From Centroscyllium fabricii (taxonomy: Eukaryota): 64,000 nucleotides of DNA. The translations under genes were made by a program, and so were the position numbers. This document shows, in pieces, positions 1,631 through 41,750 of the stretch. The DNA lies in contig JBNRSN020000034.1 of assembly GCA_051313645.2 (NCBI GenBank), positions 24,056,001 to 24,120,000 on the forward strand. The letters run 5' to 3'. Each line of letters starts with the position of its first letter. Positions within the stretch are counted from its first letter, which is position 1. The notes below the pieces were generated by a model, which worked only from the letters and a program-made list of their open reading frames with translations, was not told the DNA's origin and did no database searches.

Positions 1631-1734
1631 CAGGGCATGACACAACCATTTGCCTGCTTGCCCGGGGCAAGAAAAATGCGCCGAAGGGCAAGCAAATGAA
1701 AATCACACTTGCCCGATGCACTTCACATTAACGA

Positions 1735-2038
1735 TGATGACGGATATGGGTGGGTGGATCCGGCGCTGGAGGCGGATGTGGATTGGCCGAGAGGCCCGGC
1801 TGGCGTGGCGGTCGATTGGAGGAGGTGGCGTGTCAATCGGAACAGGGCAGCAATCAAGTTAGGTGAAGCGGGCTGATGGAACGCGGCAAGAGTGGGTCGG
1901 TGCCGTCGACCCGCTGAGGGTGAGAGAAAAAACCATAGTGGCTTCTGAGAAGAAAAAAACCTAACTACTCGGCCTTTATTTTTTCGATCAATTATAAAAT
2001 CTTTATAATTAGTCCTCGAGGGGGGGAAATATAAAAGA
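1735..2038 (+). promoter_or_regulatory. Putative captured promoter/5'UTR upstream of the QKI-like exon
   Basis: GC/CpG-rich stretch with two inverted CCAAT boxes (ATTGG at 1782 and 1815), upstream of the ATG at 2039. Confidence 0.4.
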
Positions 2039-2178
2039 ATGGTGGGGGAAATGGACGTGAAAGAGAATCCGAGACCCGGTCCCGACTATTTGATGCAGCT
2101 GATGAACGACAAGAAGCTGATGTCGAGCCTGCCCAACTTTTGCGGCATCTTCATACCTGGAGCGGCTGCTGGACGAAG
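2039..2178 (+). pseudogene. QKI: QKI (quaking, STAR family) exon 1 copy encoding the QUA1 region, with a 2-nt deletion
   Basis: Translates [38 protein letters not shown], then a frameshift, then LERLLDE followed by G|GTAGGT donor. Matches the vertebrate QKI N-terminus. The exon is 140 nt, versus 142 nt needed to keep frame. Confidence 0.92.
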
Positions 2179-2514
2179 GTAGGTGGGGAGAGAGAGTGAG
2201 GGAGCCCGCGGCCTGCGGAGCTTCACAGAAAGTTTGGTAAATGAGGGAAGAATGTTCAGAGTGGAGAGAGAGAGAGAGAGAGAGACCCTGGCCCGCCCGC
2301 CCAGCCCAGCCAGCGGCCACAATCCCCACCCACTGAGGAGGGGGGCTGCACCTCACATCCACCGTTCCATTTTAATCAGATTGATTCCCGGCAGTGTTTA
2401 ATTTATTATTTTAATTCCTTCCCCCCCCCAACCACCATTTTCCTCCCCCCGCCAACCTCCATTTTGGGACATTAAGCTGCGGGTGATGCCTACAAAAAAA
2501 CATTTTTTCATAAT

Positions 2515-2905
2515 ATACGAGCACACAACAATGACGAACAGAATAAGACTGCAGGTCCATCCAGCCTGTCCCACACAACTGCAATGCCCTGTGTGTCACA
2601 ATCTACAATGCCCACCCCATTCAAAAGCCATATAATCTCCTGGGAGAGGCAAAGAAACTGATAAAACCCATGCCAATAAGGGGGGGGGGGAAATCTGGGA
2701 AATTACTCTGCGGCCCCCTCAGGCGATCAAAGTTAGTCCAGGAGACCACATTGACCCTTGTACGAGGTGATCTCCACACCAGCCAGAATCTAATCCAGAT
2801 CTCACCTCGAGATTCAGCAGATAAGTGGCAGCTTGATCCATAGGTCCACTATTCTTGGGGCGGAGGGGGGTGGGTGAAGCACCTCCTAACATCTAACCTA
2901 GGTCT
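2515..2905 (-). mobile_element. Degenerate CR1-type LINE 3' fragment inside the hAT element
   Basis: Shares CCTGGGAGAGGC...GGCGATC...GTCCAGGAGA-CACAT with the 3'UTR (32480-32640) of the CR1 RT copy. Confidence 0.6.
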
Positions 2906-2916
2906 GGCTTTACACC

Positions 2917-3186
2917 ATGCAAGGTTTAGTCAGCTCAGAGACTTTCAGCAACATCCTGCATGTGATAGAGATCATCATGATCTTGCCACTCTCTACTGCA
3001 GCCTGTGAGAGGGGATTCTCTTTAATGAAGCACACAAAATGTGACTGGGGATCTGGGCTCACAGTAGACATGCTACTCAAGCTCATGTCACTCTCTCTCC
3101 ATGGCCCAGCGGTTGAGCATTTTGATACAACAGGTGCAGTTGCTGGATGGCTGAAGGCTGGCAATTGTCACTTAGCTTCACATTGA
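2917..3186 (+). pseudogene. hAT transposase C-terminal dimerization domain remnant (ZNF862-like)
   Basis: LPLSTAACERGFSLM...LMSLSLHGP...FD...AVAGW is the hATC signature. AATAAA at about 3311. Confidence 0.85.
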
Positions 3187-3474
3187 CAATAGCTGAAATA
3201 TTTACTTTAAGCCAGTCAGGTCTGTACAAAACATATGCAGTTAATGTATCATCCTTTTGCAATGTTCTTCACTGACTTGTCCGTCTATGGCTTTATATTG
3301 AAGCATTTAAAATAAAAATGTGAAATCTTTAGTTATTTCTTTAAAACTTTCGGGTAAGTGAAATTTGTGTTTGGGCAAGTGTTTTAGAAATCCACTTGCC
3401 CAACTGGGCAAGTGAAAAAAAAATGTTTTGTAGCACCCTGGAAGGGTTTGGAAGGTAGGCTGGAGAAGGAAGTT

Positions 3475-9759: not shown

Positions 9760-12700
9760 TGAGTAAACCCACCAACCCACACCCCCCGCACCCCAGTAAA
9801 CCCACCGACCCACACCCCCCGCACCCCAGTAAACCCACCGACCCACACCCCCCACACCCCAGTAAACCCACTGACCCAAACGCCCCCGCCCCGCACCCCA
9901 GTAAACCCACTGACCCAACCGCCCCCGCCCCGCACCCCAGTAAACCCACTGACCCAACGCCGCCCCCCGCACCCCAATCAACCCACCCCCCCGCACCCAG
10001 GTAAACCCACCAACCAAACCCCCCCAGTAAACCCACTGACCCAACCGCCACACCCACGCAGCCTAGTAAACCCACTGACCCAACGCCCCCCCCGCACCCC
10101 AATAAACCCACTGAACCAATCGCCCTGCACCCCAGTAAACCCATCGACCAAACCCCCCAGTACACCCACTGACCCAACCCGCCCCGCACCCCAGTAAACC
10201 CACCGACCCAACCGCCCCCGCAGCCCAGTAAACCCACTGACCAAATCCCCCCCACACCCCAGTAAATCTAGTGACCCAACCCCTCCCCCCCCCGCACCCC
10301 AGTAAACCCATCGACCCAACCCCGCCGCACCCCAGTATATCCACTGGCCCAACCGCCCCCGCACTCCAGTAAACCCAATGCCCCCCGCACCACAGTAAAC
10401 CCACCGACCCAATGCCCCCGCACCCAAGTAAACCCAACGACCCAACGCCCCCGCACCCCAGTAAACCCACAGACCCAACCGCCCCCGCACTCCAGTAAAC
10501 CCAACGCCCCCCGCACCGCAGTAAACCCACCGACCCAACACCCCCCCGCACTCCAGTAAACCCACCGACCCAACGCTCCCACACCCCAGTAAACCCACCG
10601 ACCCGATGCCCCCACACCCCAGTAAACCCACCGACCCAACGCCCACGCACTCCATTAAGCCCACCGACCCAACACCCCAGTAAACACACCAATCCAACCC
10701 CCCGTGCCCCAGTAAACCCACCAACCCAACCCCCCACACCCCAGTAAACCCACCGACCAAACTCCCCCGCACCCCCGTAAACCCATCGACCAAACCCATC
10801 GACCAAACCCCTCCCCCCAGTAAACCCATCGACCCAACACCCCCGCACCCCAGTAAATCCATCGACCCAACCACCCTGCACCCCAGTAAACCCTACGACC
10901 CAACCCCCACACACCCCAGTAAACCCATCGACCAAACCCCCCCGCACCCAAGTAAACCCATCAACCCAACCCGCCCGCACCCCAGTAAATGCATCGACCC
11001 AACTCCCCCACACCCAAGTAAACCCATCAACCCAACCCCCCCACACCCCAGTAAACCCATCGACTCAACCCCCCTGCACCCCAGGAAACCCACCGAAACA
11101 ACCCCCCAGTAAACCCACCAAAACAACTCCCCCAGTAAACCCACCGACCCAACGCCCCCGCACCTCAGGAAACCCACCGAAACAACCCCCCAGTAAACCC
11201 ACCAAAACAACTCCCCCAGTAAACCCACCGACCCCGCACCCCAGTAAACCCACTGAAACAACCCCCCCAGTAAACCCACCAAAACAAACCCCCAGTAAAC
11301 CCACCGACCCAATGTCCCTGCACCCCAGTAAACCCAGTGACCCAACCCCCCCGCACCCCGTAAACCCAGTGACCCAACCCCCCTGTACCCCAGTAAAGCC
11401 ACTGACCCAACCCCCCCCAGTAAAACCACCGACCCAACCCCCCCCCGCACCCCAGTAAACCCACCGAAACAACCCCCACCGCACTACAGAAATCCACCGC
11501 CACAACAGCCACCCCACACTCCAGTAAACCCACCAACCAAACCCCCCCGCACCCCAATAAACCCACCGACCAAACCCCCACAGTAAACCTACCAACCCAA
11601 CCCACCCGCACCCCAATAAACCCACCGACCAAACCCCCACAGTAAACCTACCAACCCAACCCACCCGCACCCCAGTAAACCCACCAACCAAACACCCCCA
11701 ATAAACCCACCAACCCAACCCCCCACACCCCAGTAAACCCACTGACCCAACCCCCCCAGTAAACCCAGACCCAACTCCCCCCGCACCCCAGTAAACCTAC
11801 TGACCCAACCCCCCTGCATCCCAGTAAATCTACTGACCCAAACCCCCCGCACCCCAGTAAACCCACCGAACCAACCACCCCACACCCCAGTATACCCACC
11901 GACCAAACCCCCCAGTAAACCCACTCACCCAACCCCCCCCCGCACCCCAGTAAACCCACCAACCCAACCACCCCCGCACCCCAGTAAACCCACTGACCAA
12001 ACCCCCCCACACCCCAGTGAACCCAGTGACCCAACCCCCCACCCGCACCCCAGTAAACCCATCAACCCAACCCCCCCACGCAACCCAGTAAACCCACTGG
12101 CCCAATCGCCCCCTCACCCCAGTAAACCGACCGACCCAACGCCCCCGCAAGCCAGTAAACCCACAGACCCAACGCCCCCCGCACCCCAGTAAACCCATCG
12201 ACCTAACCGCCCTGCACCCCAGTAAACCCACCGACCCAATGCCCCCGCACCCCAGTAAATCTACAGACCCAACCCCCCCTCACCCCAGTAAACCCATCGA
12301 CCTAACCCCCCCGCACCCCAGTAAACCCATCGACCAAACCCCCCCACACCCCAGTAAACCCATCGACCCAACCCCCCGCACCCCAGTAAACCCATCGACC
12401 CAAGCCCCCCGCAACCCAGTAAACCCATTGACCCAACTCCCTCGCACCCCAGTAAACCCATCGACCCAACCCCCCCCCGCACCCCAGTAAACCCATCGAC
12501 CCAACTCCCCCGTACCCCAGTAAACCCATCGACCCAACCCCCCCGCACCCCAGTAAACCCATCGACCCAACTCCCCCCGTTCCCCAGTAAACCCACTGAC
12601 CCAACCCCGCCCGCACCCCAGTAAACACATCGACTCAACACCCCCCCCCCGCACCCCAGTAAACCCACTGACCCAACCCCGCCCGCACCCCAGTAAACCC

Positions 12701-13710
12701 ACTGACCCAACCCCCCCCCGCACCCTAGTAAACCCACTGACCCAACCCCGCCCGCACCCCAGTAAACACATCGACTCAACCCCCCTGCACCCCAGGAACC
12801 CACCAAAACAACCCCCCCAGTAAACCCACTGACCCAACGCCCCCGCACCCCAGTAAACCCACTGAAACAACCCCCCCAGTAAACCTACCGAAACAACCCC
12901 CCCAGTAAACCCACCGACCCAACGCCCCCACACCCCAGTAAACCCACTGACCCAACCCCCCCGCACCCCATAAACCCACGGACCCAACCCCCCTGTACCC
13001 CAGTAAAGTCACTGACCCAAACCCCCCCAGTAAACCCACCGACCCAACACCCCCACACCCCAGTAAACCCACCGACCCAACACCCCCCGCACCCCAGTAA
13101 GCCCACCGACTAAACCACCCCTGCACCCCAGTAAACCCACCAAAACAACCCCCACTGCACCCCAAAAAACCACCGCCCCAACCCCCCCACAGCCCAGTAA
13201 ACCCACCAACCAAACCCGCCCGCACCCCAATAAACCCACCGACCAATCCCCCCAGTAAACCCACCAACCCAACCCCCCTGCACCCCAGTAAACCCACCGA
13301 TCAAACCCCCCCAGTAAACCCAACAACCCAACCCCCCCGCACCCCAGTAAACCCACTGACTCAACCCCCCCAGTAAACCCACCAACCAAAACCCCCCCGC
13401 ACCCCAGTAAACCCACTGACCCAACCCCCCCACACCCCAGTAAATCCACTGACCCAAACCCCCCGCACCCCAGTAAACCCACCAACCCAATGGTCCCCCT
13501 CACCCCAATAAATTCACTGACCCAACCCTCCCTGCACCCCAACAAACCCACTGATCCAACCCCCCCTGCACCCCAGTAAACCCACCGAAACAACCACCCC
13601 GCACCCCAGTAAACCCAACGACCCATCCACCCCTGCACCCCAGTAAATCCACTGACCCAACCACCCCCGCACCCCAGAATCCCACCGCCCCAACCCCCCT
13701 GCACCCCAGT
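9760..13710. repeat. About 4-kb C-rich minisatellite (unit about 27-35 bp, CCCCGCACCCCAGTAAACCCACCGACCCAA)
   Basis: Over 100 variant units. The Gly/Val/Trp-rich ORFs are artefacts. Confidence 0.97.
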
Positions 13711-25309: not shown

Positions 25310-26515
25310 TGGCAGTGGGGAGGGCAGTACAGCCAGTCGTGTCCCTGCCCATGGGTACTAGCCCCGGGGGCTGTAAGGGCACTACAGCCAATCGTGTCCC
25401 TGTCCATGGGTACTTTCCCTGGGGCCGTAAGGGCACTACAGCCAATTGTGTCCTCACCCATGGGTACTAGCCCTGGGGGCTGTGAGAGCACTACAGCCAA
25501 TTGTGTCCCTGCTCAAGGGTACTAGCTCCAGGGGCTGTAAGGGCACTACAGCCAATCATGTTCCTGTCCATGGGTACTAGCCCCGGGGGCTGTAAGGGCG
25601 CTACAGCCAATCATGTTCCTGTCCATGGGTACTTTCCCCGGGGCTGTAAGGGCACTACAGCCAGTCATGTCCCTGCTCATGGGTACTAGCCCCGGGGGCT
25701 GTAAGGGCACTACAGCCAATCGTGTCCTCACCCATGGGTACTAGCCCCAGGGCTGTAAGGGCACTACAGCCAGTCGTGTCCCTGCCAATGGGTACTAGCC
25801 CCGGGGGCTGTAAGGGCACTACAGCCAATCATGTCTCATGTATGGGTACAAGCCCCGGGGGCTGTAAGGGCACTACAGCCAATCGTGTCCCTGCCCATGG
25901 GTACTTTCCCCGGGGCTGTAAGGGCACTACAGCCAGTCGTGTACCTGCCCATGGGTACTAGCCCCAGGGGCTGTAAGGGCACTACAGCCAATTGTGTCCT
26001 CACCCATGGGTACTGAACCCGGGGGCTGTAATGGTACTACAGCCAGTCGTGTCCTCACCCATGGGTACTAGCCCCGGGGGCTGTAAGGGCACTAAAGCCA
26101 ATCGTGTCCCTGCTCATGGGTACTAGTCCCGGGGGCTGTAAGGGCACTACAGCCAGTCGTGTTCTTGTCCATGGGTACTAGCCCCGGGAGCTGTAATGGT
26201 ACTACAGCCAGTCGTGTCCTCACCCATGGGTACTAGCCCCAGGGGCTGTAAGGGCACTACAGCCAGTCGTGTTCCTGTCCATGGGTACGAGCCCCAGGGC
26301 TGTAAGGTCACTACAGCCAATCGTGTCCCTGCCCATGGGTACTACCCCGGGGCTGTAAGGGCACTACAGCCAATCGTGTTCCTTTCCATGGGTACTAGCC
26401 CCGGGGCAGTAAGGGCACTACAGCCAGTCGTGTCCTCACCCATGGGTATTAGCCCCGGGGGCTGTAAGGGCACCACAGCCAATCGTGTCCCTGCCCATGG
26501 GCACTAGACCCGAGG
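25310..26515. repeat. Minisatellite, about 59-60 bp unit, about 20 copies
   Basis: Unit GGGCTGTAAGGGCACTACAGCCAATCGTGTCCCTGCCCATGGGTACTAGCCCCG. Confidence 0.96.
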
Positions 26516-27599
26516 GTTAGTAAGTGCGCATGGGTTACGTTCCTCTTTTAATGAAATATAGGAGAGTCAGCACTTGTCTTTTGCTATAATCAATGACCCG
26601 TTGGCACAATCCCATTCTCAGAAGCTCTATGCTCCCACAATTTGCGGTTTGACTGGAGAGAAAGACAGGCATTATCTCAATTTTTGTTAAAAGAAGAATT
26701 TCACCTACTGCCAAGTACACGTTTTAATGGGATGGCTGGATAGTGATAAGGAGCAGGCACTTTGGCTGAGACGAACTAACTCAGCACAGACCACTGATTG
26801 AATCTTAGACCACCTGGTCTGTATGGCTCAGTACCACACTGCATGGCGAATTTGCCCACTGGGCCTTTGGGGGCGCTTATAAGCTAGGGCATTTTTTCCC
26901 TCCTTGAAAGAATCAGACTGTGACAGCAGATAGCTCAAGTGATTGAGTGCTTGAGTCCTGGGACTGGAGCTGACTGCTTGACTCAGTGCTGCACAGACCT
27001 GAATCCTGAGGAGATCCCATGGAGAATTAAATGCTGGTCAAATTGTATCTGCATCTGGCTGATCACAGTCGAAAACTCGACTGCCCAGATAGCCACACCC
27101 GCCCAGCCAGAGAAGAGCAGTCAACAAGAGGCATCAAGAGCAGAAATAAACAAATGTTAAAACACAAAATCAAATCAACAGCAAGTTTAGATTCCTGATT
27201 TAAAAATACGACAGGAGATTGGGGGTGGGGGGTGCGGGAGGAGGCCAAGAGATCTGAGCAGCAATGCACCACACGTAGGCGAAAATGTTTCAATCACAAA
27301 AGGACTCTTCATTCCCTTTGATTGATGAAGGGAGCTGCTGTTATTCAGTGGTCTCCATTTACAACTGGATTTGGTTTCGCAAAATCTGCATTAACTTTTT
27401 TTAACCCGTCCCTGTGGGCTTCTGACCAATTTTGTCATAAAAATTGATTGGGAAATCCTCCAGTTCCTTCCAGCTCTTCCGACCGTCGGTCGTTTCCACA
27501 GCATCGAGGGCTGTCATCGAAGAGCATTTGAGGCGTTTCAAGTATAGACAATCCCGAGTGCCAGCCGGGGCCAGGAAAAATATATTGATTGAAGGAGAG

Positions 27600-38800: not shown

Positions 38801-41329
38801 TTTAAATGTGGACATATGATTTAATAATGGAATTATAAAATAAGGACAGAATGTGTGACTTTAAAATGGCAACTAACTAAAACATGCAGGACCTGTTCCA
38901 ATTCTCTAACCTTGCTTTACCTGCAGAGTGAAGTGATCTGACATATTTCAATGTGATATGATGGTATTTTTAAAAATTAATTCTCGGGAAATGGACATTG
39001 CTGGCAAGTCCTACATTTATTGCCCATCCCTAGTTGCTGTTAAGAAAGTGGTAGTGGTGGCCTGCTAGAGTCCGTGTGTTGAAGGTACTCCCACAGTGAG
39101 GGAGGGAGTTCCATGATTTTGAGCCAGCAACGATGAAGGAACGGCGATATACTTCCAGGCCGAGATGGTGTGTGACTTGGAGGGGAACTTGTATTTTATC
39201 TTCTTATTTATTTTAAATACTGAAATTCTACTCTTGATAGAGATTTGCGTTAAAAAAATTAATATGGGTCGAACATCTCATCTCCCGCCTCATTTATAAT
39301 TATAATGAAAACACAGAGGAGTTGAAATTCAACTTCAGCGGGGACACAGAGCAGACAGTAAAGGATCGACCGTTCGTTATATACCAAATCCGATTTTACT
39401 TACCATCGGCGTCAATGGAAAGGAAATTTGGGCGGGGTGTATAACGGACAGCTGATCCGTTACTTCACTCCCAAACTATTCAAAGGTAAGTAAGACTTTT
39501 GTCTGTGTTGGGTGAATGGCCTGATCACAGTTTAGCTTCTGACTCTGGGAAGGCAATTAGAAGCTGACAGCAGTGTCTTGTCACCACGTGTCCCGGAGTG
39601 TGTGTGCTCCACCTCCCCCTACTTCAAGAACTAACCACGTTCTCCAGGTGCAATGTGTTGGAAATATCAGCATATCAGCAAACAGCCCAAGTGCTTTTGT
39701 AGCTTTGCCTCCTTATTTTGAAAGAAAAATTGAAAGGTATTTGCAAAAGCAATAGCCCATGGAAACTGGAATATGATTCCCAATGTGAACATGTGTGATT
39801 TTAATATCTCAGTCAGTGAGTTACCTGGGTTAAAAGATCTTACAGCTGAAAGCAATTTACTTTAGCAGAGATTAACAGAAAGCAAGTACAATAAAAAATA
39901 AATATGGTTTTATTAACTTTAAGGTCTGTAACCCCCCTTTCCCTGCTCTGTTTAATAGGTGGAGTTTTTACATACGTTTTTTTCCTTCCTCTCCTAACAG
40001 TGCAGGCTTGTGATGTGGTAATTTCACAGGTACAGACCATCCTCCTAAATCTCACAAAGTGAACCTGCTTCACATGTGAGGCGAGGCGGTGAATATTGGT
40101 GGGCTATTAATCGCTGGCAGCAGGTGGCAGCCGATCTCATCTTCATCCACAATATCCATACAAGTGCACACTCCGGCAGAAGTGAATGGACTCTGACCAG
40201 GAGCGGAAATGCTGACCAATATTTTTCCCCTCCCTAAACCCCGGGAGGCTGAGGGCAATTGGAGTGTGAACCTACTGTCCGTCCTAGATCAGCATAAGAC
40301 TAGGAAGCAAATTTGGGATGTGCCTGGACTGCATGGCTTAGTACCATAGAGAGTCCTAACTTTATAATTAATTGTACCAGAAAGACCTTAATTATTGTTC
40401 CAGTGTAACAACTACTTGCATTTATATAGGTTGGGGAAATTTCCAGAAAAGATATGGCTGTGTGATGCTCCTCATGGTTGAATAACCTGCGACCATCCAC
40501 TAGACTCAAACGTGGAAGGGTGACCAGTAACTGTGCAACTGCATCCCAGTGAATTTCAGTATCTTCAGGGGTGAGGAATGGAGGTAGAAAATTGGAAGGG
40601 GAGAGAAATCTCGGGGGCTGAAATCCATTTTGGGAGGTAACGCAAATTGTGCGATAGTGAATCAGCAGCATGTTTTACGCTCCACCTGATATTCTTTTCA
40701 GTTGTTGGAAAAGATTCGCTAGCGTCCGTTTTGCGCTACCGCCAAGGTAAATTTTGCGCCTCCACCTCCCCACCTTAATCTCAAGAGTTTTGAGTATACG
40801 TTGCGTTTCCAGACTCCAGAATACACATGGAGATCTGGTTCTATTCCAGATTTTACAGCACAGGACATTCAGCTCTAGCCATCAGGCATTTACTAATGGG
40901 AAAATTAACAGCATTAAAAAAATACATGAGGTTCAAATTATTCAACTCATTAAAAATTGCAGATAACAAATTGTTCTCTTTGTCCCTTCTCTCATTCCAA
41001 TTGATAATGCTGAGACTTAAAAAACAATGTCACTTGTGAAAATATTAATTAATTGAGATTGTACCATTCTGTTTTGCAGAATGTAAAAGACACACTTTGT
41101 ATTTTACAAGGTTTGACTGACCATGCACCCATATAATCAAATGATGGATCTGCTTGTAAACACACCAAGATAAACCTTGAATATCGCCATCTGCAATTCA
41201 GTTTCAAAAACAATGGTTAATATTGAATAATTATTCATATTTTCTTGTCTATTTCTATTATATGAATCCTTTTGTTTGTAAGTGTTGATGATTATCTGAG
41301 ATGAGTTCCTGATCCTAACAATGTGAGGG

Positions 41330-41750
41330 AGCTGGATTAACATCAGCAGAGATACTGTCAGTAAAACAGGGCGTTGGGGGAGTGGGGTTACTGAGTGACA
41401 GTGTGAGGATGCTGGATTAACATCAGTAGAAATACAGTCAGTGACACAGGGTACTGGGTGGGATTACTGGGTGACAGTGTGAGGGTGCGAGATTAACATC
41501 AGTAGAGATACAGTCAGTGACACAGGGTACTGGGTGGGATTACTGATTGACAGTGTGAGGATGCTGGATTAACATCAGTAGAAATATAGTCAGTGACACA
41601 GGGTACTGGGTGGGATTACTGGGTGACAGTGTGAGGGAGCTGGATTAACATCAGTGGAGATACAGTCGGTAACACAGGACCCGGGGTAGAAGGCTACTGA
41701 GTCTGACAATAGGAGAGAGCTGGAATATCAGGAGAGATACAAACCTAGGA
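41330..41750. repeat. Tandem repeat, about 77-bp unit, about 5 copies
   Basis: GCTGGATTAACATCAGTAGA...GACACAGGGTACTGGGTGGGATTACTG...GACAGTGTGAGG. Confidence 0.9.

Follow-up and report, generated by a model that had tools for sequence, protein, structure and literature searches.

What appears to be the first exon of a quaking gene lies at the end of a satellite array in the 64,000-nucleotide stretch of DNA analysed here (the window, on contig C867 of a 7.2-Gb genome), and the question this locus raises is how the exon came to be there. The original prediction was that a hAT transposon at 1631-3440, still carrying a remnant of the hAT dimerisation domain, had captured the 5′ end of QKI at the DNA level, had entered the satellite as one unit and may be mobile. 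Alternatively, the window could hold the gene itself, or a retrocopy or segmental duplicate of it, with pieces of hAT sequence around it by chance. Our analysis leaves little doubt that 1631-3440 is a decayed member of a non-autonomous hAT family with a high copy number, although both the donor gene and the prospect of mobility have to be revised.

The boundaries of the element are those predicted from its hAT-like ends, CTTGCCC motifs and target-site duplication (TSD). A satellite array with a period of 24 bp (TRF) fills 1-1630 of the forward strand, and the element is inserted in its end between exact 5-bp copies of GAAGG at 1626-1630 and 3441-3445. An 8-bp TSD, the usual length for hAT elements, was rejected because only two of eight positions match. 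The termini, CAGGG...CCCTG at 1631 and 3440, are short imperfect terminal inverted repeats (TIRs); the TIR of about 15 bp, CAGGG(C/T)GC.ACAAAA, and the CTTGCCC repeats occur in the window copy and in autonomous copies alike. CTTGCCC or GGGCAAG is found at 1657, 1665, 1686, 1708, 3373, 3395 and 3406, which are 7 of the 12 occurrences in the whole 64 kb. Removal of the element and one TSD in silico restores the 24-bp register at the empty site. The satellite thus does continue in register to the right, as had been claimed, but for only about 1.3 units before the array ends, the right TSD and last satellite unit occupying 3441-3472. Other large tandem arrays lie elsewhere in the window at 9762-13710, 25321-26524 and 41318-41678 (33-bp, 55-bp and 76-bp units).

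Between its ends the element is a mosaic, on the forward strand except where stated. The left end (1631-1727), with its imperfect TIR and subterminal motifs, corresponds to the first 101 or so bases of the autonomous element. It is followed by the captured upstream region and 5′ UTR (1728-2038), by the coding part of exon 1 with the start of the QUA1/STAR dimerisation region (from the ATG at 2039 to 2178, with a 2-bp deletion near its end in the window copy) and by the GTAGGT donor at 2179 with the captured start of intron 1 (2179-2488). The exon matches quaking in the PDB (4jvh, E 1e-14) and the STAR_dimer profile above its cut-off. CCAAT boxes had been reported in the GC-rich stretch 5′ of the exon and are indeed present, but on the reverse strand (ATTGG at 1782 and 1815). 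The 3′ part of this stretch aligns to the host gene. Because the host upstream region is partly unreadable in the assembly, the 5′ end of the captured stretch is not mappable on it, and we infer both the 5′ limit of the capture and the origin of the CCAAT boxes; the 5′ part, with its two reverse boxes, is presumably promoter of the donor gene. At the 3′ capture junction (2484-2510), GGGTG, which is common to the host intron and the right TIR, precedes a 21-bp stretch that repeats, inverted, the right end of the element itself (2490-2510, reverse strand), an arrangement that may be the scar of a template switch.

The remaining sequence is filler and transposase. Filler (2511-2911, no strand assigned), with a piece of a common repeat at 2624-2751, is present in all copies of the window's subfamily. 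Beyond it lie the 3′ tail of the hAT transposase gene down to its stop (2912-3186; dimerisation region, ...AACERGFS...) and the transposase trailer with the right end, its subterminal motifs and the TIR at about 3424-3440 (3187-3440). The predicted dimerisation-domain remnant is genuine: its match to Dimer_Tnp_hAT is slightly below the cut-off (E 3.6e-4), and it aligns to an autonomous copy's 3′ end at 89% identity. Relative to the autonomous element, the window's subfamily is therefore built from bases 1-101 and 2241-2762, between which lie the cargo and some 420 bp of filler.

Both a family of related copies and an intact parent had been predicted, and both were found. In a similarity search, all 40 scored DNA matches, of 3,651 candidates, were copies (the window and 39 others at 83-89%), and copies across the genome have these ends in common, whether or not they contain the insert, and have distinct TSDs. 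The parent lies on the minus strand of contig C834, about 2.2 Mb from the end of this 43-Mb contig, where an intact exon 1, exon 2, one qkia-type KH exon and one Quaking_NLS exon follow in order over 164 kb. The exon and its donor were thus correctly recognised, but the gene is not QKI. Elasmobranch quaking-A proteins match host exon 2 at 96-98% identity and frog QKI matches it at 73-75%, and GKSSMRD and T39 are of the quaking-A type; QKI as donor was rejected on these grounds. Judged by sequence, the donor is the fish paralog of QKI, qkia (quaking-A). The assembly searched yielded no canonical QKI gene, which says nothing of whether QKI is absent. According to passages in PMC4699748 and PMC11457510, qkia is a paralog that was lost in tetrapods and is needed for fish muscle.

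The cargo aligns with the 5′ UTR, exon and donor of the host gene and with two blocks of its intron (+142..+175 and +5334..+5534), which bears out the claim of capture at the DNA level. Between these two blocks the host gene has about 5 kb of GA-rich satellite (G000:C834:40909200-40914350), and the cargo has a short GA run; either the array has grown in the host or capture removed it. No ends of the family were found in the 99.5 kb around and below host exon 1. Nothing beyond the high identity of the exon to the gene speaks for a real gene, retrocopy or segmental duplicate in the window, whereas the intact host gene is on another contig, the retained donor and intron are not those of a retrocopy, and thousands of copies have the same ends and different TSDs. 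We regard this reading as having almost no chance of being correct.

The captured exon itself is decaying. The majority sequence of 138 copies encodes the same 47 residues as the host. A frameshift that is a family trait or an assembly error was rejected, as 13 of these 138 copies have a gap at the site and the family majority is in frame; the 2-bp frameshift is therefore decay of the window copy. Among 106 copies not selected by protein similarity, pN/pS is 1.01, 102 keep the GT of the donor, and 45 keep both an open exon and the GT. The exon decays neutrally, and no selection is seen.

The vehicle can be identified from its autonomous relatives. Copies selected by the transposase tail include 2.76-kb autonomous elements with the same ends, one of which has a frame of 689 codons for a transposase (P0001) that matches zf-C17orf113 above the cut-off and Dimer_Tnp_hAT below it (E 0.006). 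Its best database match, of 8,000 candidates scored, is a ZNF862-like protein of sea urchin (47% over 74%). No whole intact transposase gene was found among 95 matches from 65 scored candidates. Copies of the cargo differ from their own majority by 3.5-7% (pS 0.035). The suggestion that the unit may be mobile therefore holds for the past, as the thousands of copies attest, but present mobility of the family is unlikely because the matches scored include no intact transposase and the copies have diverged by 3.5-7%.

Classification depends in part on the TSDs. In 89 end pairs, with four elements counted on both strands, exact TSDs of 5 bp occur in 39, of 6 bp in 6 and of 7 bp in 10, with none in 34; shuffled pairs gave about 0.2 matches of 5-7 bp. 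Exact TSDs are thus of 5 bp in 39 of 55 cases, and no pair of the 89 has an exact 8-bp TSD, on which account a canonical 8-bp hAT was rejected. Other features are those of the hAT superfamily, namely the dimerisation region in the autonomous partner, the short TIRs and the subterminal repeats. Pack-MULEs have long TIRs, TSDs of 9-10 bp and a Mutator partner, and this class was rejected for a family with short TIRs, TSDs of 5-7 bp and a hAT partner. Helitrons have rolling-circle ends and neither TIRs nor TSDs; Helitron gene capture was rejected because the family has both. As in the Pack-TIRs defined by Tan et al. (2021, PMC8277862), a host-derived interior lies between two ends of one TIR family. 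Three parents are identified and none is enclosed by the element (qkia on C834, RYK on C224, CENPW on C1), and distinct TSDs at dispersed loci match the multicopy form. By function and by these Pack-TIR features the family is a Pack-hAT, though not a canonical 8-bp hAT.

As this list of parents implies, qkia is one of several cargos. The RYK module encodes a signal peptide that ends in VEEVRRLI and is followed by GTGAGT. Host RYK exon 1 (C224) has no element ends and lies 139 kb upstream of the WIF exons; it is 87% and 83% identical to shark RYK, the closest proteins being those of sawshark and sevengill shark, which suggests a squalomorph shark as the host. A PDB search with the RYK cargo peptide gave chance matches only. 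This cargo sits in a TA-flanked mariner-type element of its own, which we take to be Tigger-like and which was later nested in the hAT near its left end. The mariner-type element also carries RYK from about -180 to +475 by itself, with a TIR that starts CAGGTACACAA (for example at G000:C711:535775834-535778989). At 28 non-host RYK loci, the mariner left TIR is present in 5, both mariner TIRs in 3 and a hAT left end upstream in 15. A RYK 20-mer has 650 exact occurrences genome-wide and is exact in 28 of 59 sampled copies, which suggests roughly 1,400 copies. Separately, RYK intron 1 contains a broken autonomous-type hAT copy (L070, G000:C224:170745594-170749148), and this copy and the WIF exons occur twice, about 390 kb apart on C224, through either a duplication or a duplicate in the assembly.

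The CENPW module, an upstream region and exon 1, lies in the hAT on the reverse strand, and host CENPW exons 1 and 2 are 10.7 kb apart on C1. In its longer form the module was within the hAT in all 30 copies fetched. A 22-mer from the CENPW piece has 4,652 exact matches in all, most of which presumably sit in a TA-flanked MITE of about 540 bp (TIR starts CAGGTTGAGCACC) that bears the CENPW 5′ UTR and first 27 codons. The MITE and the hAT-borne module have the same alleles differing from the host. As local capture would predict, the start codon of host CENPW has a truncated hAT copy with qkia cargo 1.3-2.3 kb upstream of it (G000:C1:428956611-428957601); this copy does not enclose the gene.

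Further CpG-rich modules have no assigned parent (L032, L050, L090, L126, L130, L144 and others). They include a module in which two CCAAT boxes accompany GC boxes, another that combines CCAAT with CACGTG, and a third whose ATG-started frame ends at GTGAGT (MEKQKPFYGDKPRFV...); in addition, a tandem repeat of 24-bp units precedes an internal left-end copy. Searches for parents returned the family itself: for module I, all 25 loci fetched of 263 candidates were element copies, for module CG 30 loci were copies or fragments, and for module H all 30 were in the element. Pfam searches with 53 chosen module frames yielded only CENP-W, below its cut-off (E 8e-4 and 2e-3), and four weak matches that we attribute to chance. 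An atlas search returned no match, nor did a representative search, which used the wrong strand of the CENPW module.

How large the family is can be gauged from exact words. Genome-wide, a left-end 25-mer occurs 2,077 times, a coding-exon 23-mer 461 times and a 19-mer across the exon end and donor 2,522 times, one of which is the host gene; reversed control words gave no match. The same motifs are exact in 24 of 120, 49 of 99 and 63 of 162 fetched copies, respectively, and scaling up from these similarity-picked samples gives rough estimates of 10,000 left ends (duplicated internal ends included), 900 coding exons and 6,500 donors. At 40 loci on contig C1 picked by the left end alone, qkia sequence was present in 27, the donor piece in 24, the 5′ coding part in 3 and the transposase tail in 1. 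The commonest derivative has lost most of the coding exon and kept the upstream region and donor. Divergence is much greater, up to 15-19% across parts, in some members of the window's subfamily (for example L074 on C446, L075 on C830 and L076 on C823), and several cluster at C823:30-33 Mb.

The family is also present in related organisms. Sequencing runs of five of them (A-E) contain 16-41% of the sampled family words, and contigs from B, D and E span both ends, the cargo and the common deletion joint. Because these three share ends, cargo and joint, the burst likely predates their split. Outgroup runs F and G yielded nothing closer than distant matches to quaking coding sequence, apart from one low-depth family contig in F, and runs H and I gave nothing.

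Replacement of the transposase gene, a qkia cargo, amplification and stacking together provide what is very probably the best overall explanation. The transposase gene was replaced by the qkia 5′ end, likely through template switching during break repair, and the product spread to thousands of sites, likely by means of transposase supplied in trans by autonomous relatives. Deletion derivatives arose later, and the RYK and CENPW 5′ ends were stacked on. A bias toward gene starts might reflect CpG-island promoters that are open in the germ line and near insertions, such as the truncated copy upstream of host CENPW. Several observations count against this explanation, namely the excess distance of the qkia cargo from its host gene and the ordinary divergence of repeats around qkia, both described below, the unmapped 5′ end of the captured stretch, the 34 of 89 end pairs without an exact TSD and the lack of a family copy near qkia now.

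It is also conceivable that promoter-exon-donor cassettes were favoured or put to use, for example as mobile alternative first exons that are spliced to nearby genes and add a QUA1 dimerisation piece or a RYK signal peptide. All three identified cargos are gene 5′ ends, the commonest derivative keeps the upstream region and donor while most coding sequence is dropped, the GT survives in 102 of 106 copies and open exon with GT in 45, and among bat Helitrons those that contain promoters are more numerous than the rest, according to a passage in PMC4224331. However, pN/pS across copies is 1.0 and the retention of the GT is what 3.5% of neutral decay would leave. Moreover, identification favours coding first exons, so that the 5′ bias is partly one of detection, and several modules have no assigned parent. 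Use of the cassettes is thus a possibility that we consider doubtful.

The divergence between cargo and host qkia is anomalous. The cargo majority differs from the host at 26 of 205 positions in the UTR (12.7%) and at 47 of 174 in the far intron block, with a range of 13-27% in non-coding sequence, but the exon has five synonymous differences (about 29-34 sites) and no replacement in 47 codons; the cargo-type exon 1 alleles are G33, T51, G81, C90 and G117. Because the absence of replacements limits neutral drift on the element stem to about 3%, the difference must have arisen in a working gene. Cargo and host differ at 16 of 169, 2 of 154 and 15 of 218 positions for RYK and at 14 of 190 for CENPW, with no base bias, and the difference between qkia and RYK in the UTR is borderline (Fisher p 0.055). 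For qkia, changes from cargo to host run from AT to GC in 43 cases and from GC to AT in 10 (p 6e-6). G/C swaps make up 23 of the 80 differences and count against conversion bias alone, which does not explain them.

A regional increase in rate was rejected, since the divergence of repeats in the 99.5 kb at qkia does not exceed that of repeats in other places (median 88.9 vs 90.4%, p 0.39), and any acceleration of the host must therefore be very local. In sharks, GC and Ks are higher on short chromosomes and towards chromosome ends, according to a passage in PMC10620051. Local acceleration at the host promoter after an early capture is the reading we favour with some confidence, because of the AT-to-GC skew, the growth of the satellite, the position near the end of a short contig, and the residues V7 and S14, which occur together in cargo and host but are not paired in any of the 15 further chondrichthyan quaking-A proteins compared that include an N-terminus. 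The excess difference would then be mostly GC-biased acceleration that followed the capture.

Alternatively, the same element may have arrived ready-made by horizontal transfer or introgression, its qkia cargo taken from another shark lineage or from a lost second qkia copy. Five synonymous and no replacement differences in 47 codons indicate that the divergence built up while purifying selection acted, rather than along a neutral transposon stem, especially as pS among copies is only 0.035; moreover, local capture fits the RYK and CENPW cargos much better than it fits qkia, and the repeats around qkia are not fast. Nevertheless, since V7 and S14 occur together, among the proteins compared, in cargo and host alone, the donor would have to be a close lineage, and the strong skew from AT to GC in the host direction is in keeping with local conversion. 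In addition, only one Quaking_NLS exon and one qkia-type KH exon were found in the assembly, and the UTR excess of qkia over RYK is borderline. We judge such an origin unlikely, and slightly less likely still its specific form, in which a foreign allele from another shark lineage later collected the RYK and CENPW starts of this one. What probability remains falls to alignment inflation and ancestral polymorphism. As a dated snapshot of the host promoter, the cargo majority makes it possible to test how fast such a promoter changes.

Searches with exon 1 of qkia, RYK or CENPW in these sharks will return hundreds to thousands of false paralogs. More broadly, gene capture by TIR elements in animals has been held to be mostly single-copy and independent of transposition. 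Here, two superfamilies have amplified first exons from three different genes, which occupy roughly 10,000 sites or more in a single vertebrate genome, as Pack-MULEs have done in rice and Helitrons in bats. Whether 5′ ends are preferentially captured or amplified, and whether such cassettes seed alternative first exons, can now be tested. A literature search for captured gene fragments in shark DNA transposons, or of qkia, found no such family, though a consensus may be deposited in Repbase or Dfam. Judged from its sequence and these reports, the family appears to be new for a vertebrate cut-and-paste element in its scale, serial stacking and nesting across superfamilies.

The closest animal counterparts are the Pack-TIRs of the 100-genome survey by Tan et al. 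(2021, PMC8277862), the main text of which gives 370 Pack-TIRs, four of them multicopy (three in frog, one in alligator) with three to five copies as examples. The word shark does not occur in that main text, and its supplements may list a cartilaginous fish. Examples such as frog hAT-N8_XT, with 291 bp of the CAPSL 5′ UTR, and fly Ssk-FB4 resemble the shark family in having a TIR on both sides and an unflanked parent elsewhere, and the likeness extends to distinct TSDs, GC-rich 5′ cargo and junction microhomology. The shark family, however, has thousands of copies, at least three gene starts and a nested Pack element of another superfamily.

Among hAT elements, groups with TSDs of 5, 6 or 7 bp are known separately (hAT5, hAT6 and hAT7, as described in part of PMC12730594). 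In a comparison by description, the shark family resembles these groups and ZNF862/C17orf113-type transposases in having a hAT transposase and TSDs shorter than 8 bp, mostly of 5 bp. Each group has one TSD length, whereas this single family yields 5, 6 and 7 bp, which is of interest for the hAT mechanism. Plant Pack-MULE, Pack-hAT and Pack-Mariner elements, as outlined in portions of Gisby and Catoni (2022, PMC8903248), are similar in their non-autonomous shuffling of genes between TIRs, stepwise gain from multiple loci and composites of neighbouring copies. The cluster sizes quoted there, such as more than 100 for maize hAT clusters, are one to two orders smaller than the shark family.

In cargo and abundance, the nearest parallel is provided by bat Helitrons. 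HelibatN3 bears NUBPL's promoter, its 5′ UTR and exon 1, and part of its intron 1 in about 1,000 copies (Thomas et al. 2014, in the sections of PMC4224331 that describe it). A vertebrate host, the anatomy of the cargo, sequential captures, over-represented 5′ ends and thousands of copies are common to both systems. Yet the bat elements are rolling-circle transposons, whereas the shark family is a cut-and-paste element with TIRs, TSDs of 5-7 bp and a hAT transposase.
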